Part shown: positions 1,198 to 13,922 of the stretch, piece after piece | Numbering within the stretch: the first letter of the stretch is position 1 | Layout: each line of letters begins with the position of its first letter | From: an uncultured Candidatus Saccharibacteria bacterium | GTDB taxonomy: Bacteria; Patescibacteriota; Minisyncoccia; Phycocordibacterales; UBA2100 | NCBI GenBank assembly: GCA_964623775.1 | Contig: CAZUVH010000001.1 | Location: 220,784 to 284,783 of the forward strand | Direction of reading: 5' to 3' | DNA length: 64,000 nucleotides | The notes under the pieces: model-generated | The model's input: the letters and a program-made list of their open reading frames with translations, nothing else | Told to the model about the DNA's origin: nothing | The model's database searches: none | Made by a program: the position numbers and the translations under genes

Positions 1198-1710
1198 ATG
1201 AAAGGCCTTGAAAAAGTATCTTCACAAATACCTACGCGCAACACGTCGCTTGAACGTGGAGATGGTAAGCCGCTTCGTTTCGAAGATAAGCGGAGTCCCG
1301 ACTTTCCTTCGGCGTTCGATGCGGAGGCATTTCTACGAGATCTTAGTGTCGCCATGGACGGGAGTAAACTCTTCAAGGCAGGCATAACGAAATATGGTAA
1401 ATATTTTCAGCCCGGTACGGCAGAATCCGATCACTTCACTGAGAGCTTGCGCGATGCACAGGCTATTGCCGTCACGTTAGAAAACTGGAACAGAATGATG
1501 GGAATCACCAATGAAAGTCAGACTGTGGCGACCATTGATGCGATCATTGATAAAGACAATATAAAGAGGACGCAGATGCGATTTAACGAGGACGGCACAT
1601 ATCGGGCCGGGTCACTTACACAAACCCTTGTCGGGGACGAATTGAAAAAATTGCAAAGTGAGATGGAAGAATCCCTTATTTCCAATGATAATGAGTCACG
1701 TAATGTATGA
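1198..1710 (+). CDS. hypothetical protein (170 aa)
   Basis: Its stop overlaps the murA start in an ATGA arrangement at 1707-1710 (translational coupling); no recognisable domain; TAAAGT -10-like box 16 nt upstream. Confidence 0.55.
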   Translation: MKGLEKVSSQIPTRNTSLERGDGKPLRFEDKRSPDFPSAFDAEAFLRDLSVAMDGSKLFKAGITKYGKYFQPGTAESDHFTESLRDAQAIAVTLENWNRMMGITNESQTVATIDAIIDKDNIKRTQMRFNEDGTYRAGSLTQTLVGDELKKLQSEMEESLISNDNESRNV

Positions 1711-3011
1711 ACTATAAAGTGGTGGGCGGTAAATCGCTTTCAGGTAGCGTCGTTACGAATCGTTCAAAGAACGCTGCGGTGGCGCTCCTATGCGCGTCCC
1801 TGCTCAATCGCGGCACGACCACGCTCAAGCGTATGCCGCGCATCGAAGAGGTAAAGCGCCTCATCGAAGTCTTGCTCAGTATCGGAGTACACGTTGAATG
1901 GCAGGAGAGTGGCGATATCGTCATTACGCCGCCGGCGAATCTCGATTTATCCAAAATCAATCAGGAGGCGGCGAGCCGCACGCGATCGATTGCGATGTTT
2001 GTTGCGCCGCTCGCGCACCTTCTCGGCTCATTTGAATTACCTGCTCCCACGGGATGTGATCTCGGGAAGCGCTCGCTTGGTGCGCATATCGATGCGCTGC
2101 AAAAGCTCGGTATCGAAATCACCGGCAACGAAAATGCACATTCGTACCACGTGGAGACGAAAGACGTACATCCGGCGGAGATCATCATGTATGAAGCTTC
2201 TGACACGGGCGTCGAGAACGTCCTCATGGCTGCGGCGAAAATTCCTGGCACGACGACGATCAAATTCGCAAGCGCGAATTACATGGTGCAAGACCTCTGT
2301 GTTTTCTTGCAGCAGTGTGGCGTGAAGATCGATGGGATAGGCACGACGACGCTCGTGGTGACGGGAGTCAAGGATATCAATGCAAATCTGATCGGTATCC
2401 CGAGCGAAGACCCAATCGAATCGATGTTCTTCATCGCACTCGCGGCGACGACCGGCTCAGAAATCACGATTGAGCGTTGCCCGATGGATTTTCTTGAGCT
2501 TGAACTCTATACACTCTCGCAAATGGGCCTGGAATATACACGTGGGGAATCGTATGTCTCTGAAAACGGCCACACGATATTGCGTGACCTTGTGATAAAA
2601 AAATCAAATCTCGTGGGCGCACCGGAAAAGATCGCACCGCGCCCGTATCCGGGTATTAATATCGACAATCTTCCGTTTTTTGTGCCCGTGGCCACGCAGG
2701 CAAGAGGGAAGACCATGATTCACGACTGGGTCTACGATGGCCGCGCGAAGCACTATATGGAAATGGCGAAGCTCGGCGCAAAAATGGAAATGCTTGATCC
2801 GCATCGCGTCGTCATCGAGGGTCCGACCACATTGCATGCTGCGGTGATCGAAGCGCCGCCAGCGCTCCGACCCGCGACACTTCTCCTTATCGGGATGCTC
2901 GCGGCAGAAGGGGAGTCGATGCTCAAAAACGTGTATCCGATCTCCCGCGGCTACGAAAATCTCCACGAGCGCCTCGCCGCACTCGGCGCCTCTGTAGAGG
3001 CAGTGGAGTAG
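1707..3011 (+). CDS. murA: UDP-N-acetylglucosamine 1-carboxyvinyltransferase
   Basis: 434 aa; N-terminal KSLSGSV..SKNAAVALL motif and overall EPSP-synthase-like MurA architecture. Confidence 0.9.
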   Translation: MNYKVVGGKSLSGSVVTNRSKNAAVALLCASLLNRGTTTLKRMPRIEEVKRLIEVLLSIGVHVEWQESGDIVITPPANLDLSKINQEAASRTRSIAMFVAPLAHLLGSFELPAPTGCDLGKRSLGAHIDALQKLGIEITGNENAHSYHVETKDVHPAEIIMYEASDTGVENVLMAAAKIPGTTTIKFASANYMVQDLCVFLQQCGVKIDGIGTTTLVVTGVKDINANLIGIPSEDPIESMFFIALAATTGSEITIERCPMDFLELELYTLSQMGLEYTRGESYVSENGHTILRDLVIKKSNLVGAPEKIAPRPYPGINIDNLPFFVPVATQARGKTMIHDWVYDGRAKHYMEMAKLGAKMEMLDPHRVVIEGPTTLHAAVIEAPPALRPATLLLIGMLAAEGESMLKNVYPISRGYENLHERLAALGASVEAVE

Positions 3012-3343
3012 TGCTACTATTTGTAGATACAAGTTTTAAACTCTATATGGATCAAACAACAAGTCCCGTTTCACCTGCTAGCTCGGAGGTCACCTGGGCC
3101 ATCGCTGCCACTTTTTGGTGGGCGTGGTGCTGGCGCGCAGCGTTAGTAGGAATCGGTGGGGCAATGGCAATAGGCTTCGTATTCGGTTTTGTCGGCGTCA
3201 TACTGGGCGCAGATGTGGTCACGATAACGCTAGTTTCCCAGATCCTAGGGGGTATCCTCGGGATCGTAGTAGGCATATATTTTATAAAATCTCTTCTCAA
3301 TAAGGATTTCAAGACTTTTAAAGTGACTGTAACGCGTAAATAA
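3011..3343 (+). CDS. small hydrophobic membrane protein
   Basis: GTG at 3011 overlaps the murA stop TAG (3009-3011); alternative ATG at 3047; two predicted TM helices (WWAWCWRAALVGIGG..., GILGIVVGIYFI). Confidence 0.45.
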   Translation: MLLFVDTSFKLYMDQTTSPVSPASSEVTWAIAATFWWAWCWRAALVGIGGAMAIGFVFGFVGVILGADVVTITLVSQILGGILGIVVGIYFIKSLLNKDFKTFKVTVTRK

Positions 3344-3475
3344 ATCCCTGCTGATTGGATAAAAAATATGGGGATTGATAAATTCGTACAGTTTGCAAAG
3401 GACAAGGCTAAGGATGTCGTCGATGCACGCAATTTACATCTCAAAGATCCGGCGTTATCAAGTCAGTAAAGTATT

Positions 3476-3883
3476 ATGAGAGCAAATGCAAAGTCAGGTG
3501 GCGTGATGCTTGTGATGATTGGCCCCGTGCTTTCTATGGTCGCCTTCGCCTTCGTCAATCCCCCGATCGGAGGCCTACTTATTTTAATTGGTTTGTTACT
3601 TTGGGCAGCTGGAGTTCTCACGTTGATCTATGTCAAGGCGCGACTCTATGGGATCCGAGGCCTACCCCTTTCATTGGTTTTATTTATCGGTCTCGTTATC
3701 GTCACAATAGCAGATTATATTTCTGGTCTACACGCGCCCAACGACGGCATAAGGGGGCTGGAGCTCATTCCCCTCTTTTTTATCACCTTCATCGCGTTTG
3801 CCTTTTTGAATATCGCGCTTATACGAAATAAGCCAGGTTCTCTTGATGGATTCCTGCAGGCACTTCGGGATTATAAAGATTGA
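3476..3883 (+). CDS. integral membrane protein (4 predicted TM helices)
   Basis: 135-aa hydrophobic ORF; TAAAGT -10-like box 3 nt before the ATG, no SD. Confidence 0.5.
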   Translation: MRANAKSGGVMLVMIGPVLSMVAFAFVNPPIGGLLILIGLLLWAAGVLTLIYVKARLYGIRGLPLSLVLFIGLVIVTIADYISGLHAPNDGIRGLELIPLFFITFIAFAFLNIALIRNKPGSLDGFLQALRDYKD

Positions 3884-3916
3884 CTTGGAAATCCGTGGAG
3901 GCGGTAGAATAACCAC

Positions 3917-4171
3917 ATGAATCAAGCTTGGAAATGGGCGGCCGGAATTCTTGTCGCCATTTTTGTGTTTGGCGGAATGTATTTGAGCGGCTGTGGCGGG
4001 AATATCAATCCGCTTCATTGGACGGTCTCGTGGTACGCGTTTGCGACAGGGCCATCTGAGTATCTTCGCGAATTACATAATCTGTGCTCGTTCAAGCCAG
4101 TTACTCGTGAAGATGTGATGGGCGAGAAAGATCCACCTGCGCCGCTGCCGTCGGTGAATCCGTGGGATTGA
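3917..4171 (+). CDS. small membrane/lipoprotein-like protein
   Basis: 84 aa; N-terminal hydrophobic segment followed by LSGC lipobox-like motif; GGAGG 16 nt upstream. Confidence 0.4.
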   Translation: MNQAWKWAAGILVAIFVFGGMYLSGCGGNINPLHWTVSWYAFATGPSEYLRELHNLCSFKPVTREDVMGEKDPPAPLPSVNPWD

Positions 4172-4232
4172 AACATGTGGCGAGCTTGATTCGATGGAGT
4201 ATAACTGGCAAATCAACTAGAATAGTCACATT

Positions 4233-4314
4233 GGGCATGTGGCGGAATTGGTATACGCGTGCGTCTCAGAAGCGCATCCCGCAAGGGTTGGGAGTTCGAG
4301 TCTCCCCATGCCCA
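4233..4314 (+). tRNA. tRNA-Leu, anticodon CAG, class II with long variable arm
   Basis: Hand fold: acceptor GGGCATG/CATGCCC; D-stem GCG/CGC with loop GAATTGGTATA (G18G19 present); anticodon stem TGCGT/GCGCA, loop CTCAGAA; variable arm TCCCGCAAGGGTT; T-arm GGGAG-TTCGAGT-CTCCC; discriminator A; CCA not encoded. Confidence 0.85.
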
Positions 4315-4315
4315 C
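4297..4315 (+). repeat. 19-bp direct repeat copy 1 (CGAGTCTCCCCATGCCCAC), the 3' end of tRNA-Leu
   Basis: Identical 19-mer recurs at 4454..4472. Confidence 0.8.
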
Positions 4316-4430
4316 TCGCGAAGCGAGTGGCGTTCCGCATGCCTGCGCATGCGGAACTGGGGACGAGAAGGGCGGAGCGATGTCGCAAAAGCTTTTGCGA
4401 CCGCGAGCCGGGGTCGCGGAAATTCCGAGC
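4312..4430 (+). other. four consecutive GC-rich hairpins between tRNA-Leu and its 3'-end duplicate (possible att scar or structured RNA)
   Basis: CCACTCG-cgaag-CGAGTGG; GTTCCGCATGC-ctgc-GCATGCGGAAC (11-bp stem); TCGCAAAAG/CTTTTGCGA 18-bp perfect palindrome; CCGCGAG-ccgggg-TCGCGG; no T-tracts. Confidence 0.4.
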
Positions 4431-4453
4431 GGCGGCGATGAATTATTCGTGAC

Positions 4454-4472
4454 CGAGTCTCCCCATGCCCAC
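4454..4472 (+). repeat. 19-bp direct repeat copy 2 (duplicate of tRNA-Leu 3' end)
   Basis: Exact match to 4297..4315; no upstream tRNA body, so not a second tRNA. Confidence 0.8.
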
Positions 4473-4532
4473 AACAGAAGAGACTCGCCAACCACAACTT
4501 TCGCCGTCTTGGGAAAGGGTTGTTTCGCTTGC

Positions 4533-4540
4533 TGTATAAT
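4533..4540 (+). promoter_or_regulatory. extended -10 promoter element TGTATAAT upstream of the Cache-HAMP gene
   Basis: TGnTATAAT at 4533-4540; weak AAAGGA SD follows; ATG at 4566. Confidence 0.45.
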
Positions 4541-4565
4541 TTAAAAGGACATAGCAAACCCAAAA

Positions 4566-6152
4566 ATGATAAAAAAAATAACCGGGGTTTTTGCCCAAAT
4601 TTTCAACCAAAAAAGTATTAGGACTGAAGTCCTGGCGCTTTTGCTGTGCATTGTCTCAATATCAGTGATTGCCGTTATCTTTTTGGAAGTGAGCTCCATT
4701 TTGATATTGAGGGATAAGGCCCAGGAGACGACTTCTGTCGCCCTGCGCGGGGAGACAGAGAAACTTTTTAATGAACTCACCAAGGCGGCAGCCGAGAAAA
4801 ATGACCTGATTTTCCACGAGATAGCTACTGATGCCAGTAAGGCTGCAAAATACGCTGAAAACATCTTTGAGAACCCCCAAGCCTTTGTGCGGGGTTCCTA
4901 TTGGCGGTATGACGACCAGGTTTTCAGGGGCGACAAAGGGCAATATATGAATGGGGCGGACGATCTCTCTTCGGTTTTCATACCCAATCATGTTGTCATC
5001 ACCGATGATTTGAAAAAAAGAGTGGAATTGAGTGCGTATTTGGAGTTTATCTTTCCAAAAATTCTAGAAAAAAAACCAGATGCAGTAGCGATCTGGATGA
5101 TCGGCCACCAGGGAGAATCGAGATACTATCCTAATATAGGTCTTGGCAACATAGCGCCTCCAGACGAAAAAGTCACCGAAGAGGTTTTTTTCGTAATAGC
5201 TAATCCGGAAAATAACCCGGAGAAAGAAGTTGTTTGGACACCGGTCTATGATGATCCTGCAGGGCAGGGACTAATGATAACTGCCTCGGCGCCGATATAC
5301 ACAAAGCAAAAAGGTTTTATGGGAGTTTTGGGTATTGACGTTACCCTCACAAAAATACTTGAGAACGTTGAGGAATACAGCCCCATAGAGGACGCAGATT
5401 CGTTTATCATTGATGAGCGAGGATACGCCATTGCCCTATCAGACGAAGCGCACCAAGAACTCCTTGGGAGGAGTCCGGAAAAAAAAGAATTCGGCGTAGA
5501 TCTAAATGGAGTTACCAAGGAACTCGACTCAGTCATCAGTGAGATGAAAAAAGGCTCGACGGGCAATAAGACCATAACTTTGTGGGGCAGAGAACAGTAC
5601 ATTTCCTACGCTCCGATGAAGAGCACGAAATTTAGCCTTGGAATGTTCGTAGAAAAATCAGTGATGGAAAAAACAGCTACTGGTCTCGAAAAAGAAATGA
5701 ACAGTTCGGCCTGGGAAATGATTTTTTTCCGTCTCTTTCCCCTTAGTCTACTAATCCTTCTAGTCGCCTGGCTCGTAGTCTATTGGTACATGAACCACCG
5801 AATAACTCAGCCGCTGAGCAGTTTAACGAGGACAGCGGAAGAGTTGTCGGGTGGCAAAATGGAGGTCAGATCGGATATCGTCTCGGAAAATGAAATTGGA
5901 CAACTGGCGAAGGTGTTTAATCAGATGGCCGCGCAGCTCCAAGAGCACTATAGCGGCTTGCAGCAAAAGGTCGAAGAAAGAACAACTGAGGTTGAGAAGA
6001 CCAAAGGCAAAGTAGAGACAGTTAATCAAGAGTTGTTGAAAAAAGTGGAGGAGCTTGATCGAATAAATAAACTGATGATTGACCGGGAACTGAAGATGAT
6101 AGAAATGAAAAAAGAAGTAGAGGCTCTGAGGCAAGCTCAGGGTAAAAATTAA
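4566..6152 (+). CDS. Cache (dCache_1-like) / HAMP domain membrane sensor without recognisable output domain
   Basis: 528 aa; TM1 near the N-terminus, ~330-aa extracytoplasmic domain, TM2 (LFPLSLLILLVAWLVVYWY), canonical HAMP (RITQPLSSLTRTAEELSGG...IGQLAKVFNQMAAQL), then ~70-aa coiled coil; no kinase, MCP signalling or GGDEF domain. Confidence 0.6.
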   Translation: MIKKITGVFAQIFNQKSIRTEVLALLLCIVSISVIAVIFLEVSSILILRDKAQETTSVALRGETEKLFNELTKAAAEKNDLIFHEIATDASKAAKYAENIFENPQAFVRGSYWRYDDQVFRGDKGQYMNGADDLSSVFIPNHVVITDDLKKRVELSAYLEFIFPKILEKKPDAVAIWMIGHQGESRYYPNIGLGNIAPPDEKVTEEVFFVIANPENNPEKEVVWTPVYDDPAGQGLMITASAPIYTKQKGFMGVLGIDVTLTKILENVEEYSPIEDADSFIIDERGYAIALSDEAHQELLGRSPEKKEFGVDLNGVTKELDSVISEMKKGSTGNKTITLWGREQYISYAPMKSTKFSLGMFVEKSVMEKTATGLEKEMNSSAWEMIFFRLFPLSLLILLVAWLVVYWYMNHRITQPLSSLTRTAEELSGGKMEVRSDIVSENEIGQLAKVFNQMAAQLQEHYSGLQQKVEERTTEVEKTKGKVETVNQELLKKVEELDRINKLMIDRELKMIEMKKEVEALRQAQGKN

Positions 6153-6987: not shown

Positions 6988-7434
6988 ATGGAGACCAAGC
7001 GTTATACCTTTTCTGTCGGCAACGAAGTCAAGTTCACGGCGGCCGTAAAGGCCATCTTCAGCAACGACGCGGCGCATGAGGGCGACCACATCATCGTCGA
7101 GATTCGCGCCGTCCCACGTACCGAGAACGATCCCTTCTCGCCCAACTACATGGGCGCACAAGAGGGACAGGATGCCGTCGGCCACCATCAGCAGGTGCGC
7201 TTCGAAGGGCACGACAACTGGGTCAGCGGCGCATTGCTCGAGCCCACGCACGAGTGGAATTCGTTCGATCAGGCGATGTTCGCTCAAGGCCTCGATCAAT
7301 TCTTCGACGGACTTTTCGATGCTGCGAGGAAGGGCGACATCTCGTATCAAGAGATCGAGCAACGGTTCTTCCCCCCGGACATGCGATCTCGGGCCCGCGC
7401 AGCTGCCGAAGAACAGTTGGCCCTTGACCTCTGA
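6988..7434 (+). CDS. hypothetical protein (148 aa, acidic)
   Basis: GAGGAGAG SD upstream; consensus promoter upstream and terminator downstream; opposite-strand ORF 6751..7362 is Arg/Leu-rich antisense. Confidence 0.6.
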   Translation: METKRYTFSVGNEVKFTAAVKAIFSNDAAHEGDHIIVEIRAVPRTENDPFSPNYMGAQEGQDAVGHHQQVRFEGHDNWVSGALLEPTHEWNSFDQAMFAQGLDQFFDGLFDAARKGDISYQEIEQRFFPPDMRSRARAAAEEQLALDL

Positions 7435-9235: not shown

Positions 9236-10510
9236 TTAGCGCAATTGGTGTTGTAGAGTGGTCTCCACGAGCGCTCGGGGCCATCCATAGGCGAGCCGAT
9301 TGAGGGTCACCACCTTCTCGGTGATAGGCGAGGGAGGTGCCTCCTGGGGCGCGAGGCTTCTGCCCGAGAAAACCTCGCTCGTCTTGCCGTCGATCATGAG
9401 TTTTATATAGAAATTGAAACGTGGAAGGCCGAGGAAATCGGCTTCGTGGATCCCCGCCATCTCGCGCGAGAGGATTTTGGCATCCTCGACGCCCACTTCG
9501 AATGCGGCGAGCGTGCCCACGTTGCCGAGGACTGCGTCTTTGATATTTTCCGGCAGCTGCGAGAAATACTGGTTGGTGAGATGCATGCCGAGTCCATATT
9601 TACGTGATTCGCTGAGGAGGGAGGCAAACGTGTCTGTCGCAAAATTCTGAAACTCGTCGACGTAGAGGTAGAAGGGCGCGCGATCATCCGCCGATCTCTT
9701 GGCGCGCTTGAGAGTCGCTGCTTGTAGTCGAGACATAAGGATGAGGCCAAGCATGTGCGCGTTGATCTCGCCGATTTTCCCCTTCGAGAGGTTGCAAAGC
9801 ACGATTTTGCGATTGTCCATCATTTCGCCAAAATCGAACGAGCTCACGTGCTGGCTCATGATGTTGCGCATGAGCGCGTTGTTCATAAAGGGGCCGAATT
9901 TGGACATGAAGTAATTCAGCATTTCGCTCTTGTGGAAGTCCGACGTCTTCTGCATCTGCTTGGTCCAAAAGTCGATGACGAGAGGATCGGTGAGGTGCGC
10001 GCGTTTTTGCCGCTCGAATTCACGATCGACGAAGAGCCGGGGGATCTCGAGAATACTGCCGCCCTCAGGACCAGTCATCACGGTGAGCGCCGCGTTGCGC
10101 AACCAGTGTTCGAATTGCGGACCGATGACACCGGTTTTCTTGGGATCAAAGAGTTTGTAGAAAATCTGAATGCATTCGTTGACCAGGAAATCTTTCTCGA
10201 ATTCGTCGTGCGCCTCGAGGAGATTGAGCCCCATCGGGAATTCCGTATCGCTCGGATTGAAAAGCACCACATCCTGCAGCCGCTCACGCGGGATATGCGC
10301 GAGGAGCCAATCGATCGACTCTCCGTGTGGGTCGATATAGCAGGCGCCATCACCGTTTTCAATATCTTGGAGGCACATGTTTTGGAAGACTGTCGACTTA
10401 CCGACACCCGTCTTACCGATCATGTACATGTGGCGCAGACGATCGGCGGGCTTGAAGCCGATGAGATTTCTTTTGCCGCGATGGACGCTTTCGCCGATGT
10501 GAATGTTCAT
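9236..10510 (-). CDS. VirD4/TraG-like coupling-protein-type P-loop ATPase (TrwB_AAD_bind/DUF87-like), soluble, no N-terminal TM
   Basis: Walker A MIGKTGVGKST; YIDPHGE matches the coupling-protein DPKGE motif; Walker B FYLYVDEFQNF; start overlaps the upstream small gene (ATGA). Confidence 0.65.
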   Translation of the reverse strand: MNIHIGESVHRGKRNLIGFKPADRLRHMYMIGKTGVGKSTVFQNMCLQDIENGDGACYIDPHGESIDWLLAHIPRERLQDVVLFNPSDTEFPMGLNLLEAHDEFEKDFLVNECIQIFYKLFDPKKTGVIGPQFEHWLRNAALTVMTGPEGGSILEIPRLFVDREFERQKRAHLTDPLVIDFWTKQMQKTSDFHKSEMLNYFMSKFGPFMNNALMRNIMSQHVSSFDFGEMMDNRKIVLCNLSKGKIGEINAHMLGLILMSRLQAATLKRAKRSADDRAPFYLYVDEFQNFATDTFASLLSESRKYGLGMHLTNQYFSQLPENIKDAVLGNVGTLAAFEVGVEDAKILSREMAGIHEADFLGLPRFNFYIKLMIDGKTSEVFSGRSLAPQEAPPSPITEKVVTLNRLAYGWPRALVETTLQHQLR

Positions 10511-10746
10511 ATGAGTGAAATGTCGAGTTTTTTCTGGATAAAGTATTCGGACTTGAGCGTCTTGTTGAGTTCTTTCCGTACCGCCTCCGTCTTCGCGTCG
10601 GATTCGATCATGGCGACGAGCGATTGGTGTTCATACTCGATCTTCTTTTCGAGTGCGTGGAGAAGGGCAGGGCTGATATCGCGCGCCACTGAGGCGAGCA
10701 TGTCGCGGCGTTGCTCCACCATCTTTTGTGCGTGAGCGTGTGTCAT
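10507..10746 (-). CDS. small helical protein (79 aa), translationally coupled on both sides
   Basis: Start overlaps the Clp-like stop (ATGA) and its stop overlaps the VirD4-like start (ATGA). Confidence 0.5.
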   Translation of the reverse strand: MTHAHAQKMVEQRRDMLASVARDISPALLHALEKKIEYEHQSLVAMIESDAKTEAVRKELNKTLKSEYFIQKKLDISLI

Positions 10747-12401
10747 ACAGTGCCAAGGAGTGATTGGACTAATAAGGTCTCGCAGGTTTCCTCGACAAAT
10801 CGCTTCACGGGACGTGCTCCGAAGCGGGGATCTGAGAGGTGTGCGATCTTCTCTCGCATCGCGGCGGGTTCGATGTCGAATTGCACGCGATGTTTTGAGA
10901 GACGCTTCTCGATCTTCTTGATCTCAAGCTCGGCGATTGAGACGAGACTCTTGGTAGAGAGGGGATTGAAAATGAGCACAGCATCGAAACGGTTGATGAA
11001 TTCGAGTCGAAAAGTCTTGGCGAGTATGGGCAGGATCTTTTCTCGCACCACGGACTCATCGCCAAGATCGTCGCCATGCTCGAATGCCTGAAGTATTTCC
11101 GCGACACCCGTATTGGATGTCGCCATGACGATCGTGTTGCGTGCGTCGACTGTCTCATTCTGTCCGGAGGTGAGTCGGCCGTCGTCGAGTACCTGGAGGA
11201 AGATGTCGAAGACTTTTGGATGCGCTTTTTCTATTTCGTCGAGCAGGATGAGAGAGTACGGCTCTTTGCGCAACGCATTGGTGAGCGCGCCGCCCTCGTC
11301 GTAGCCCACGTATCCCGGCGGTGAGCCCACGAGCCTCTGCACCGTGTGATCTTGCTGGAATTCCGACATGTCGAATCGAGCAAAGCTCTCCGACCGACCA
11401 AACATTATCTCCGCGACGCACTTAGCGGTCTCTGTCTTGCCGACACCTGAGGGGCCGAGCATGAGGAACGACCCGAGCGGACGATTTGGATTACGTAGTC
11501 CGAGCTTTGCCCGCTGCAGAGTCGCGGCGATTTTCCTGATCGCACTGGATTGATCGACGATCCGCTCGTTGAGCCGCTCCTCGAGATCCTTCACTCCCGC
11601 GAGTTCATTCTGTGAGAGTTGCGATTCCGGTACGCCCGTTTTGGGTGCGACGACATGCGAGATCGCCTCGCGTGTGAGTACTCGCTGACTTTTCGAGGCG
11701 GCGTACGAAATACTTTCGTCGAGCAGGTGGATCGCCGACTGCGGCATTTGCCCAAGAGTGGGGAAGCGCTCGGTGTGCGCCACGATCTCTTGGAGCGATT
11801 CATCCGGTACGATCACGCGATGGCGCGCATTGAGGCGCGGCAATTTCTCCGAAAGTATTCGTGTGTGCTCTCCGGCGCTCTGTCCCTTGAGATTGATCAC
11901 CTCAAATTCCTGCACGAGCGACGGGTGCTCTTGTTCGAGCCAGGCAAATTCATGCGGTTCGAGTGTAAGGACGACATGCACGTGCTGATCTTTGAGCAGC
12001 TTTTTGTACAAGCGGTACATGCGATGCGTGAGCGTCGCATTGCGGGTGATTTCGCGGCCAAAATCGTCGACGAATATCACGCTATGCGGCACCTGCGAAA
12101 ATGCTTCCGCATACCGCTCTTCGAGTGCGCCGTCATTGTCGAGCGCGTAGAGATGCGAAGTATCAAATTGGAGGAGTGCATATGAGTCGTATTTTGCGTT
12201 ACCGCTCATGCGCTTCATCGCGCCATAGACAAGCATTGATTTGCCGATACCGTTTGGCCCCACGATGAGCGCATTATTTTTGATCCTCCGGCCGAAGACG
12301 CGGTAGAGGCGATCGATCTCACTTTCGCGCCCCACGATTTTCGGAAGCCGCGGAGCTTCTTGGCGGAGATTATAGTAGGCGATTTTTTTCGGATCAGTCA
12401 T
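10743..12401 (-). CDS. Clp/Hsp100-family double-AAA+ ATPase lacking N- and M-domains (ClpA/ClpB D2-like C-terminal half)
   Basis: D1 P-loop LIVGPNGIGKS and Walker B VIFVDDFG; D2 LMLGPSGVGKTETAK, GSPPGYVGYDEGG, SLILLDEIEKAHPKVFDIFLQVLDDGRLT are hallmark ClpA/B D2 signatures; only 552 aa. Confidence 0.7.
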   Translation of the reverse strand: MTDPKKIAYYNLRQEAPRLPKIVGRESEIDRLYRVFGRRIKNNALIVGPNGIGKSMLVYGAMKRMSGNAKYDSYALLQFDTSHLYALDNDGALEERYAEAFSQVPHSVIFVDDFGREITRNATLTHRMYRLYKKLLKDQHVHVVLTLEPHEFAWLEQEHPSLVQEFEVINLKGQSAGEHTRILSEKLPRLNARHRVIVPDESLQEIVAHTERFPTLGQMPQSAIHLLDESISYAASKSQRVLTREAISHVVAPKTGVPESQLSQNELAGVKDLEERLNERIVDQSSAIRKIAATLQRAKLGLRNPNRPLGSFLMLGPSGVGKTETAKCVAEIMFGRSESFARFDMSEFQQDHTVQRLVGSPPGYVGYDEGGALTNALRKEPYSLILLDEIEKAHPKVFDIFLQVLDDGRLTSGQNETVDARNTIVMATSNTGVAEILQAFEHGDDLGDESVVREKILPILAKTFRLEFINRFDAVLIFNPLSTKSLVSIAELEIKKIEKRLSKHRVQFDIEPAAMREKIAHLSDPRFGARPVKRFVEETCETLLVQSLLGTV

Positions 12402-12407
12402 ACATTA

Positions 12408-13922
12408 CTAGCCAGCGCGGCGCATGCTTATTCCGTTCAACGTGCGACGCGAAGTGGTCTGTACCGGAGTGTTGTCGTTTTGAGGTGGGGAATAGCGTGT
12501 CGGTCGCAGCACCTCGGGGTTCACAGATTCTCGTGTGGCGACAAAACGTGGAGTGGTCGGGATGCCGAGTGCGCGCTGTAGAATCTCCGCGCCAGTCATG
12601 ACACGTTCGCTCCTCGTCTCCTCTGCGGCAGGTATATCGATTGTCTCAGCTCGCGCAGGCTTTTCATGGGTAGTCTGTGCCGGGAGTCGCTCCCTCTCGA
12701 CCGAACTCCGTACCACATGGTCTTGCTCCCGTGTCTCACCACTGCTTTTGATATTGATTATTTCTTCGTGTCGCGCGCGATGTTCTCCGAGAGGGAGCGA
12801 CTCCCGGACCACTTCAACTTCTGGTTTTTCTGCAATCGAGAGCTCTGTTTCCTCGAGGCCTTTTTCTTCAACAATCCTCTGCTCCATCTTGGGGATCACC
12901 ACCTCGCGTATCAGTCGTGTGATCGGCTCATTGAAAAGGGGAGCTGGCTCGATTTTCACCGCGGCCTCGGGCGACTCAACGGCGAGCTCTTTTGACGCAG
13001 GGCTCGCTTCCTGTTCTTGTTGTGCAAGCTTAGCTTGCTCAACTGGCGGTTCGGCCCCTTTTTCTTCGACGCTCTCGACGAATACGGGGAGTGATTCAAA
13101 AATCTTTTCTCGCACGGGTTCTGGAGTAGGGGATTCGGGAGCCAAAAAGCGAGAGAGCCAGGATTTTTCTGCCACCTCCTCTTTTTCTTCTGCAATTTCT
13201 GGCGCAGCTTCGTTCACGATCGGCGTTTCAAAATACGTTTCAGCGGGTACTCCGCTATAAAAAGTCGTTTCATGCATGTGGGCGACTGTTTCTTGCACTA
13301 CTTCGATCTGCTCCTCCACTACTTCTTGTGGACTTTCGTGCCACTCGACATGGTGGTCCTTCTCGGAGCTTTCAGAAGTCTCTTCACCTTCAAATTCGTC
13401 ATCCTCTTCATCCTCTCCGATCATCGTCGAGCGGATTTCGTAGCTCACACTGCCATCGGGTGCGCGGAGAAGGTGCGTGACATGTAAAATCTCTTCGCCA
13501 GCGCGCTCCTCGATGTAATCGGGGAGGCGAATCATCGATTCACCGCTCTTCAAAAGCTCGAGCGTCTCGTGGTGCGCTGCGCGGTACCCGTCGTCGTACC
13601 CGCTGTCGATTTTCTCAGTGAGCGATTCTCCCGTACGCGTGTCGACTATCCCTTTGCCATCAAACATATACTCACCCGAGCTGCGGTGGGTGAGCTCCCA
13701 ATCCTCGATCTGGCCACCCTTGTGCTCCAAGATGTCTTGCAGCGCCGGGTCGTCTGTCTCTTTTGAAATTTCGGACTCGTCTTCAAAATCTTTCTCGTCA
13801 TTCTCAAAATCCTCCCGTGCTTTTTCAGCCTCGAGGTCTCTCTCGATATCGCGCAAAATCTCCTCATCTGTGTAGTGTTCTGTTTCGGTGGGCATATATA
13901 CAGCATTCAAAACTCCCGACAC
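12408..13922 (-). CDS. highly acidic Glu-rich low-complexity protein (first gene of operon)
   Basis: 504-aa ORF, GTG at 13922 or ATG at 13895; about 25% D/E; 6-nt gap to the Clp-like gene; no domain recognised. Confidence 0.45.
   Translation of the reverse strand: MSGVLNAVYMPTETEHYTDEEILRDIERDLEAEKAREDFENDEKDFEDESEISKETDDPALQDILEHKGGQIEDWELTHRSSGEYMFDGKGIVDTRTGESLTEKIDSGYDDGYRAAHHETLELLKSGESMIRLPDYIEERAGEEILHVTHLLRAPDGSVSYEIRSTMIGEDEEDDEFEGEETSESSEKDHHVEWHESPQEVVEEQIEVVQETVAHMHETTFYSGVPAETYFETPIVNEAAPEIAEEKEEVAEKSWLSRFLAPESPTPEPVREKIFESLPVFVESVEEKGAEPPVEQAKLAQQEQEASPASKELAVESPEAAVKIEPAPLFNEPITRLIREVVIPKMEQRIVEEKGLEETELSIAEKPEVEVVRESLPLGEHRARHEEIINIKSSGETREQDHVVRSSVERERLPAQTTHEKPARAETIDIPAAEETRSERVMTGAEILQRALGIPTTPRFVATRESVNPEVLRPTRYSPPQNDNTPVQTTSRRTLNGISMRRAG

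Follow-up and report, generated by a model that had tools for sequence, protein, structure and literature searches.

Tyrosine integrases that target tRNA genes typically duplicate the segment that runs from the T-loop to the 3' end of the gene. The hepatitis delta virus (HDV)-like ribozyme at the 5' end of R2 retrotransposons can form its P1 helix with upstream 28S rRNA sequence; the Mauriceville and Varkud retroplasmids of Neurospora capture mitochondrial tRNA sequence and integrate at a tRNA gene by homology; and the primer-binding sites of retroviruses are complementary to the 3' end of a tRNA. In the published work consulted here, minimal HDV-like ribozymes (termed theta ribozymes) are described downstream of phage tRNAs and provide a precedent for the trimming of tRNA 3' ends (PMC10879173), the small non-autonomous repeats of bacteria--MITEs (miniature inverted-repeat transposable elements), Correia elements, and repetitive extragenic palindromes and bacterial interspersed mosaic elements (REP/BIME)--are surveyed (PMC11602168), and the R2 ribozyme is mentioned (PMC3414825). 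Here these systems are compared with an element that lies 3' of the tRNA-Leu(CAG) gene within a 64,000-nucleotide stretch (termed here the window) of contig CAZUVH010000001.1, from an uncultured Candidatus Saccharibacteria bacterium; the metagenome from which the contig comes is SRR12822863.

The feature in the window is an intact copy of a conserved, Y-shaped structured element, apparently undescribed, that occurs behind many tRNA genes of Patescibacteria. The reading favored here, to which a probability of roughly 0.55 is assigned, is that this module is a non-autonomous structured insertion element, which is co-transcribed with the tRNA and which duplicates ~19 nt of its target. The module family itself is well defined and is common in Paceibacteria.

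The module at tRNA-Leu(CAG) and its fold

The single tRNA of the window, tRNA-Leu(CAG), is called both by ARAGORN and by the Rfam tRNA model, with its end at 4314 or 4315: the discriminator, A73, is position 4314, and the CCA-like encoded end stops at C74 (4315). The 19-mer CGAGTCTCCCCATGCCCAC, which comprises tRNA nt 56-73 plus one more base (that is, through C74), occurs at 4297-4315 and recurs, with 19/19 identity, at 4454-4472; this is the duplication that a first-pass annotation of the window had pointed out, and it is confirmed. By chance ~0.01 matches are expected, and two matches were obtained in 0 of 100 shuffles. These repeat statistics exclude a chance origin, and an assembly error is excluded both by an identical second assembly of the same genome (L001, where loci are designated by L numbers), which agrees at 7401/7401 positions, and by independent family members elsewhere. 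No third copy of the 19-mer is present in the whole 64-kb window, even when 3 mismatches are allowed. The spacer between the two copies is 138 bp long and free of open reading frames (ORFs), its sequence is not repeated elsewhere in the window, and it folds more stably than its shuffles (z = -3.9).

Together with the second 19-mer, this spacer constitutes one full copy of the module (4316-4472 or, equivalently, 4297-4453), the parts of which are listed in Table 1. The upstream and downstream copies of the repeat are termed R1 and R2; an anti-repeat (AR), which in the window is split in two by a hairpin, pairs with the second of these copies. The resulting helix, P1, closes the module and joins 4328-4331 and 4358-4364 to the downstream 19-mer. 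Three other members of the family (L094, L051 and L207) have an anti-repeat that is split as in the window, and hairpins of the GCGAAGC type occupy the hp1 position in the short modules L009, L075, L094 and L016 as well.

A consensus fold was obtained with RNAalifold from eleven short-form modules, and a covariance model was built on that fold. The consensus is a three-way junction (hence the Y shape) in which P1 corresponds to AR paired with R2. P2 consists of a GCC/GGC base, an internal loop (G-S-A opposite G-A) and a covarying hairpin of variable length, and P3 comprises 16 bp (GGUCGCGG..CCGUGACC) with a bulged A (GGUCG...UGACC type), the last pair of which uses the first C of R2. These helices are connected by three joining strands: J12, which is GAGAAR or TCGAAR; J23, which is RG; and J31, which is GA and which corresponds to G57 and A58 of the T-loop copy. 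The covariance model yields 42 hits in 100 loci. In the window it matches positions 4355-4472 over its full length (model positions 1-96) with a score of 71.1 bits (E = 2e-18), and all of the conserved positions are present.

Support for this fold comes from patterns of covariation. Pairing is observed in 93.9% of the pairing cells, as compared with 71.0 ± 0.9% after shuffling (0 of 500 shuffles reach the observed value) and with 35-47% when partners are slid by 1-3 columns. Compensatory changes occur in 24 of the 27 pairs, including 15 of the 16 pairs of P3, within the alignment of covariance-model hits, an alignment that was fitted to the model and is thus biased toward structure; given how large the effect is, and given the outcome with slid partners, it is unlikely that the covariation is an artifact of this fitting. 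One pair of P3 is a G·U in 35 of the 42 aligned hits; its counterpart in the window is G4416·U4450. Because a G·U would be a C·A mismatch on the opposite strand, the fold belongs to the tRNA-sense strand, whether in RNA or in single-stranded DNA of that strand. In the family alignment, ~25 positions are near-invariant. A variant architecture occurs in two modules behind tRNA-Arg (L016:4532-4651, minus strand, and L091:5687-5800, plus strand), where an extra hairpin (CCG-UAAU-CGG type) within R2, after CGA, converts the three-way into a four-way junction.

Seen against this fold, the four hairpins that the first-pass annotation had read in the spacer fare differently. Three of them are real helices of the element, including the 11-bp stem (4332-4342 with 4347-4357) and the palindrome, which is likewise real, its length being 20 nt (4382-4401) rather than the 18 given. 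The fourth (CCGCGA..TCGCGG) is not a conserved helix: in the fold that covariation supports, its bases belong to the 3' strand of P2, to J23 and to the 5' strand of P3. A reported lack of T-tracts is only approximately true, inasmuch as TTTT occurs at 4393-4396, within the palindrome.

Table 1. Parts of the tRNA-Leu(CAG) module in the window, with the repeats found behind other tRNA genes
Feature	Position in window	Strand	Remarks or loci
tRNA-Leu(CAG), intact	4233-4314	+	ARAGORN; Rfam RF00005, 56.3 bits, E = 9e-11
R1, first copy of the 19-mer	4297-4315	+	tRNA nt 56-74 (T-loop end, T-stem 3' strand, acceptor 3' strand, A73, C74)
hp1, mini-hairpin CTCGC-GAA-GCGAG	4315-4327	+	begins at the tRNA 3' end
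AR, distal part (GTGGC including G4327)	4328-4331	+	complementary to acceptor end GCC(C)AC of R1/R2
hp2, 11-bp branch hairpin	4332-4357	+	between acceptor and T-stem parts of AR; optional in the family
AR, proximal part TGGGGAC	4358-4364	+	complementary to GTC(TC)CCCA of R1/R2; P1 5' strand
J12, joining strand GAGAAG	4365-4370	+	G-A-A nearly invariant in the family
P2	4371-4409	+	GGC/GCC base, conserved internal loop (GGA opposite GA), long-form covarying hairpin with palindrome 4382-4401
J23, joining strand GG	4410-4411	+	
P3, GGTCGCGG-AAATTC..tip..GAATT-A-TTCGTGACC	4412-4454	+	conserved G·U, bulged A; last pair uses C4454, the first R2 base
J31, joining strand GA	4455-4456	+	within R2
R2, second copy of the 19-mer	4454-4472	+	4457 onward is the P1 3' strand
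Val(TAC) repeat CGAGTCCTGTATCGCCCAC			19/19 to own tRNA; L009, L059, L094
Ile(GAT) repeat CGATTCCTTCCTGGCGCAC			19/19 to own tRNA; L083
His(GTG) repeat			19/19 to own tRNA; L030, L051, L021
Leu(CAA) repeat			19/19; L144
Leu(TAG) repeat			19/19; L143
Leu(GAG), Arg(TCT), Arg(GCG), Arg(CCT), Ser(TGA) and Asp(GTC) repeats			R2 with small changes or with a hairpin inserted after CGA

The complementarity of AR to both R1 and R2 gives rise to two nearly iso-energetic folds. In the first, an intact tRNA is followed by the closed module (AR:R2), with a computed energy of -113.5 kcal/mol; in the second, which is the minimum free energy structure at -119.2 kcal/mol, the 5' part of the tRNA pairs with R2 and a long R1:AR hairpin forms. 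Folding during transcription should favor the first fold, with its intact tRNA, and the energies alone do not tell which fold is adopted in the cell.

A family behind many tRNA genes

A scan for the 19-mer over one genome per GTDB species returned 108 loci, nearly all of them from Patescibacteria (Paceibacterota, Kaiser-, Adler-, Nomura- and Lloydbacteria, together with metagenome-assembled genomes, or MAGs, labelled as Saccharibacteria); the 19-mer is present twice in 5 of the 108. This places the host among the bacteria of the candidate phyla radiation. The spacers of L026, L052 and L064 align with that of the window over the last ~80 nt, and their hairpins covary. This shared 3' part reads GGGAGAC-GAGAAG-GCCGSAG-[hairpin]-CGAG-GCGGGG-TCGCGG-AAATT[hairpin]AATT-AT-CCGTGAC and is followed by the 19-mer. 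A profile hidden Markov model (HMM), built from these three spacers and that of the window and applied with nhmmer, was used to find further copies, which together with those of the covariance model bring the family to ~44 copies across ~30 Patescibacteria (Paceibacteria) MAGs: ~35 within 100 loci and 9 at metagenome loci. (The latter come from a metagenome scan with CGAGSCGGGGTCGCG, in which true modules were present at 9 of 120 loci among the matches listed, most of the others being chance matches in GC-rich DNA.)

Beyond what the first-pass annotation had noted, then, the same module occurs behind other tRNAs, with a repeat and an anti-repeat matched to each. Modules are found nearly always 15-130 nt 3' of a tRNA gene and on the same strand, behind at least 12 tRNA species--Leu (four anticodons), Val, Ile, His, Arg (three), Ser and Asp--and, in one case, after rplL. 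They often end in ..GTGAC followed by R2, a 19-nt copy of nt 56-74 of their own tRNA (Table 1). As to whether the arrangement recurs identically at the tRNA-Leu locus of relatives, the picture is mixed: ~11 of the 108 species with the same tRNA 3' end have it and the rest do not, so that the module at tRNA-Leu(CAG) is not a trailer common to all of them, nor is it an isolated scar.

The anti-repeat is always upstream of the core and is complementary to the same tRNA bases as are copied in R2. Examples are GTGTGGGGCTCG for His, GTGCCCA-[hairpin]-GGAGAGGACTCGAA for Leu(GAG) and, in the window, GTGGC-[hp2]-TGGGGAC; often AR also reaches the complement of T54 and T55 (..TCGAA), and it can be up to 21 nt long. 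Across ~100 tRNA-Leu(CAG) loci, a downstream complement of the tRNA end exceeds chance length only where the core is present. Two simple origins for AR were considered and rejected. AR cannot consist of the leftover 5' strands of a second tRNA copy, since it also complements T-loop positions 54-60 and positions 73-74, which are absent from the 5' half of a tRNA. Nor does R1-hp1-AR represent a pre-existing terminator palindrome, given that AR never occurs without the core and that the original trailer is 3' of R2, not of R1. At one locus after tRNA-Leu(CAG) (L050:7061-7300, plus strand), a different core, of ~66 nt, is enclosed by an anti-repeat that is perfect over 12 nt (GGGAGACTCGAA) and by another tRNA 3' end, and the entire 153-nt unit begins a tandem repeat; the copy/anti-copy architecture may thus extend beyond one family of cores.

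Behind tRNAs with an encoded CCA, a second form of the module is found (termed here type B, that of the window being type A) in L078, L039, L082, L095 and L026 (minus strand). In type B, P1 is a capped, terminator-like hairpin whose 5' strand has its start in the final 4-9 nt of the tRNA; next comes the core, which ends in GTGACC-ACA... The 3' flank contains a degenerate copy of the P1 5' strand in L078 and L082, and only its first few nucleotides match in L039 and L083. The order of parts is thus the same as in the type A module of the window--copy, hairpin, anti-copy, core, copy--with the downstream copy decayed. Terminators, where visible, lie 3' of R2 (L094, L051, L019, L016 and L187), which places the module within the transcription unit. 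A co-transcribed structured trailer, one of the possibilities raised in the first-pass annotation, is compatible with this, with the invariable location on the tRNA strand and with the strand-specific G·U.

Loci differ in the presence and arrangement of modules. In L009 and L094, tRNA-Leu(CAG) is followed by tRNA-Val within 0-2 nt and no module intervenes; in WY2.bin144 the two genes are separated by a full Leu module, the limits of which are exactly those of the 19-nt repeat. (This site was joined from L064 and L059 through an exact overlap of 75 nt; L064 ends, and L059 begins, within the repeated module, and the assembly was evidently interrupted because the Leu and Val modules are so nearly identical.) With the Val core of SKS1.bin80, a genome without a Leu module, the Leu core of WY2.bin144 has 97% identity, and with other Leu cores only ~80-85%; more generally, the division into long-form and short-form cores cuts across tRNA identity. 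A tRNA-Ile gene has the type B module alone in L039, L082, L053 and L050 (and also in L054, where the upstream tRNA falls outside of the region examined); in L083 an extra type A module is nested between tRNA-Ile and the type B module. Tandem units, in which R2 is followed by a second hp1-AR-core, occur in L143, L127 and L050, L206 has two modules, the first of them degenerate, and at least 4 copies lie within 16 kb of one MAG (L094 and L078). In L187, the core begins 7 nt after the stop codon of rplL; after the core come AAGGTTACGCTCAAGTAACT, which repeats the final 20 nt of rplL with 18/20 matches, and then the rplL terminator; here P1 is GUAAC:GUUAC, derived from the palindromic target itself. 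Between L009 and L094, the core of the Val module differs at ~9 of 65 positions, with paired changes, and the downstream flank has diverged by about one third; R2 shows 0 differences in 19.

Another sort of duplication is seen after the intact tRNA-Leu(CAG) of many Patescibacteria genomes (L014:4395-4485, minus strand; L052:4084-4240; L035, L036, L046, L103, L104 and L108), where a partial second tRNA-Leu copy extends from the anticodon stem to the 3' end. These copies, which are often degenerate, are preceded by a short linker, often TCAGTTCAGAA-like, and are interrupted precisely in the T-loop, directly 5' of C56, by unrelated insertions that are hairpins or AT-rich. They are a duplication type distinct from the module, and could be either integrase sites of the anticodon-loop type or decayed tandem tRNA copies. 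In L011 (2450-2640, minus strand) a core is inserted in such a partial copy, between the anticodon arm and the variable arm, and a separate small hairpin occurs in its T-loop after TTCGA.

Insertion element, host RNA or scar

Under the reading favored here, the element would enter at the 3' ends of genes and duplicate ~17-21 nt of its target--at tRNA genes, the stretch that starts with nt 56 in the T-loop and reaches the 3' end. The tRNA would be kept whole by R1, upstream, and R2 would be the displaced copy. Transcribed with the tRNA as a structured trailer, the element would have its core maintained by selection on the single-stranded fold, which may be either the recognition target of a trans-acting mobilization machinery or a means of self-processing that renders the insertion harmless. 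For the retargeting of AR and R2, an analogy may be drawn to the rewriting of a primer-binding site from the priming tRNA, or to the capture of tRNA sequence by a retroplasmid. The conserved fold on the tRNA strand, the rewriting of AR and R2 for each tRNA, the patchy, duplicative and nested distribution, and a 17-21-nt duplicate that in one case copies the end of a protein gene are together better explained by an insertion element than by a dedicated device of the host. Likewise, among the explanations offered in the first-pass annotation, that of a miniature element fits best, in view of the patchy presence, the indels bounded by the repeat, the tandem units and the insertion at rplL with its duplication of 20 nt.

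Several observations weigh against an insertion element. None of the copies has a linked transposase, integrase or reverse transcriptase, nor is any such gene found among the 20 ORFs scanned in the first 18 kb of the window. A plain target-site duplication leaves unexplained an AR of up to 21 nt that matches each new tRNA. Modules are retained orthologously with compensatory changes (Val in 3 genomes, Ile type B in at least 6, Leu(GAG) in at least 5), which fits an RNA useful to the host at least as well as a parasite; moreover, the distal part of R2 is conserved beyond the reach of AR (as in L009 and L094, noted above), which passive duplication does not predict. Finally, recombination between R1 and R2 could have removed modules, in which case the clean indels would be losses and not gains, and the 97% identity of paralogous cores could reflect gene conversion.

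The main alternative, a serious one but distinctly less probable, is that the module is a cis-acting RNA within the tRNA precursor that benefits the host--a device for processing or folding, possibly a self-cleaving ribozyme or a site for a processing enzyme. In such a device AR would transiently hold R1 and R2 would then displace R1, freeing the folded tRNA or timing its 3' maturation; the repeat would thus be a functional competitor. Ribozymes and aptamers typically show what is seen here, with ~25 nucleotides near-invariant and covariation strong; the module is immediately 3' of tRNAs and on their strand, orthologous modules are kept across genera with compensatory changes, conservation of the distal part of R2 exceeds what pairing with AR needs, and the two alternative folds are nearly iso-energetic. 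In type B, moreover, P1 starts within the last 4-9 nt of the tRNA, so that the 3' end adjoins the junction, and theta ribozymes offer the precedent cited above (PMC10879173). However, a module is present in just ~10% of the species with the exact tRNA-Leu 3' end, and close relatives differ in this respect; the rplL copy duplicates the end of a protein gene and is without a tRNA function; and the tandem, nested and degenerate copies resemble the dynamics of a repeat element. In addition, the distance from the tRNA 3' end to the junction is 19 bp in type A and 4-6 nt in type B, which no single cleavage geometry can serve, and known ribozyme models give no match.

In a further, improbable reading, the Y-shaped core might be a new small catalytic RNA of a self-propagating element, in which AR would serve as a guide that pairs with the tRNA 3' end much as a primer-binding site does, the core itself would cut 5' of R1 and 5' of R2, and the resulting unit-length RNA of ~157 nt, possibly circular, would be recopied into DNA and re-enter tRNA genes by way of the segment derived from a tRNA, with AR and the repeat being rewritten for each tRNA. 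Such an element would be a bacterial counterpart, within the candidate phyla radiation (CPR), of the ribozyme-bearing retrozymes and short interspersed nuclear elements or of viroid-like circles with a genomic phase.

Less probable still is an intron-like insertion into the T-loop, whereby R2 would be the true 3' exon and R1-hp1-AR-core (4297-4453) would be excised and the exons sealed by a ligase such as one of the RtcB type. Both cuts, one 5' of R1 and the other 5' of R2, would be made by one core, to which AR would present each site, and a unit-length, possibly circular RNA would be freed. Both candidate splice sites do lie at the three-way junction in the R1:AR (minimum free energy) fold, R2 is kept identical to R1 even in the acceptor part that is not paired with AR in short forms, and tandem arrays resemble multimers that are processed to monomers. 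But R1 already completes the tRNA, which makes splicing needless, and R2 is mutated or truncated while R1 is perfect in L086, L087, L107, L037 and L051; the downstream duplicates of type B and of rplL are too degenerate to restore the gene product; and no intron model matches. The group I rule (U at -1, terminal G) is not satisfied at any register of the repeat: registers within the repeat make the last exon base the same as the last intron base, for which reason U plus G is impossible, and register 0 ends in C.

The last of the explanations, which had figured in the first-pass annotation, is effectively refuted: that the 19-mers are the attL and attR sites of an integrase-borne island in tRNA-Leu that was mostly deleted to a 138-bp scar draws on a repeat that covers just the segment typically duplicated by tRNA-targeting tyrosine integrases (19/19 identical) and on partial tRNA-Leu(CAG) 3' copies (L014, L052, L035, L036, L046, L103 and L104) that hint at a recombination hot spot, yet the supposed scar is a complete member of a conserved, covarying family that also occurs at different tRNAs in different genera, an anti-repeat matching the att core is not what a random internal deletion would leave, there is no third att copy in 64 kb, the 19-mer occurs in none of the IMG/VR viral contigs, and Pfam detects no integrase--and hence no recombinase in or near the bracketed DNA--among the 20 ORFs of the first 18 kb, which include all of those flanking the tRNA, ORFs past ~18 kb being unscanned.

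Genomic setting and comparison with described systems

The neighbors of the tRNA are chromosomal: a MurA-like enzyme of the EPSP-synthase fold upstream and a Cache/HAMP sensor downstream. The latter, encoded 3' of the element (4566-6152, plus strand), is a dCache/HAMP protein of 528 aa without a kinase domain; its closest homologs, at 50-57% identity, are mostly histidine kinases of ~750 aa, several of which come from MAGs with archaeal labels (DPANN; 'Nanoarchaeota/archaeon'), which on sequence grounds suggests truncation and/or exchange between CPR and DPANN, or else mis-binning. Farther along, a run of genes on the minus strand (9236-13922) encodes a weakly matching TrwB/TraG-like coupling-protein ATPase (424 aa), a small ORF, a ClpB-like double-AAA protein (552 aa) and a protein of 504 aa without a Pfam match; this run, which is not bracketed by the 19-mer, may be a cassette for defense or derived from conjugation. 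Upstream of the tRNA, at the end of a small ORF, there is a weak match to the CRISPR-DR7 model (4118-4174, plus strand; 22.9 bits, E = 0.27, under the gathering score), which is treated here as due to chance, being a single copy without an array. In L083, a Kaiserbacteria contig, a group I intron (1256-1540, plus strand; Rfam, 75 bits) lies ~1 kb 3' of the end of the 16S rRNA, presumably within the 23S rRNA gene, and the tRNA-Ile with two modules follows it at 5082.

If the reading favored here is true, then CPR/Patescibacteria, whose streamlined genomes are of ~1 Mb, carry several copies per genome of an RNA element without a match in Rfam 15 or in the literature consulted, one that attaches itself to tRNA genes and rewrites ~40 nt (copy plus anti-copy) for each tRNA. 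For RNA biology, the core, with its ~25 invariant bases and strong covariation, is a candidate for a new ribozyme, aptamer or protein-binding fold. For the study of mobile elements, it would represent a mode of insertion with a 17-21-nt duplication and closing stems derived from the target, a combination that no known transposase, integrase or intron mechanism fits. More practically, annotators of CPR genomes should not take every duplicated tRNA 3' end for an island boundary by default, and tRNA trailers of this kind can break CPR contigs, as occurred at the L064/L059 split.

Searches against described families and sequences are consistent with an undescribed element. With Rfam 15, the only match within window positions 3000-6000 at E<=1 is the tRNA; eight module-bearing loci at E<=5 give no match on any module; and a lone 126-nt module at E<=10 gives just two chance matches of <=16 bits. 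The models thus silent include hammerhead, HDV, twister, twister-sister, pistol, hatchet, group I and II introns, transfer-messenger RNA, YrlA and Drum. The group I model (Intron_gpI) finds the genuine intron of L083 and makes no match on the module. BLAST against phages and plasmids yields no match to the module; in IMG/VR, a 15-mer of the core has 120 matches listed, all by chance, and none passes the module HMM. A description of the module was not found in the full-text literature, coverage of which leaves out most subscription journals, so that novelty is unproven.

Known structures were also threaded manually, and neither the HDV-like, hammerhead and hairpin ribozymes, nor the k-turn, nor group II domain V fits. 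An HDV-like or theta fold needs a P1 3' strand of ~7 nt and P1.1 where threading of the consensus leaves only 2 nt (GG) between hairpins. For a hammerhead, the joining strands, of 6 nt (GAGAAR/TCGAAR), 2 nt (RG) and 2 nt (GA), contain no CUGANGA. P3 superficially resembles group II domain V (a lower stem of 9 bp, a G·U and a bulge in the 3' strand), whereas its spacing and bulge size differ. A CRISPR array is rejected because there are two copies only and the 'spacer' is the conserved part, and an archaeal bulge-helix-bulge intron or split tRNA, which the archaeal labels on homologs of the sensor had brought to mind, because the 19-mer is nearly confined to Patescibacteria MAGs and the tRNA is complete without splicing.

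The systems introduced at the outset each share certain features with the module. Like the R2 retrotransposon with its ribozyme, the module would be an insert co-transcribed with a host RNA gene, and its own sequence can pair with upstream host sequence to form a helix of its core; it differs in having no HDV-like double pseudoknot (the 7-nt P1 3' strand is missing) and no reverse transcriptase ORF, and in its bacterial host. With retroplasmids and primer-binding sites it shares a stretch that repeats, or is the complement of, the 3'-terminal ~18-19 nt of a tRNA and that could be rewritten from whichever tRNA is used; since it is only ~150 nt long and has no linked reverse transcriptase, the analogy extends to the retargeting of AR and R2 alone. 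Theta ribozymes are, like the module, small structured RNAs located immediately 3' of a tRNA on the same strand, but the module is a three-way junction without a nested pseudoknot and it duplicates the tRNA 3' end, as theta ribozymes do not.

Further parallels are with small repeats and with integrative elements. MITEs, Correia elements and REP/BIME resemble the module in being small, ORF-less, multi-copy and intergenic, in their insertion polymorphism (the junction between the Leu and Val genes exists as filled and empty sites) and in a presumed transcription into hairpin RNA. A MITE, however, has conserved terminal inverted repeats shared by all copies, whereas the inverted repeat of the module (AR and R2) is derived from the target and differs at each tRNA; the module duplicates 17-21 nt as opposed to 2-10 nt; and its conserved part is internal, and is kept by compensatory evolution rather than by recent amplification. 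Like tRNA-targeting integrative elements, the module comes with a direct repeat of the stretch between the T-loop and the 3' end, and of its two copies the upstream one keeps the tRNA intact while the downstream copy is displaced, and presence varies between genomes; what sets the module apart is that, within 115-190 nt devoid of integrase or cargo, it combines an internal anti-repeat with a single-strand fold whose core recurs behind at least 12 tRNA species.

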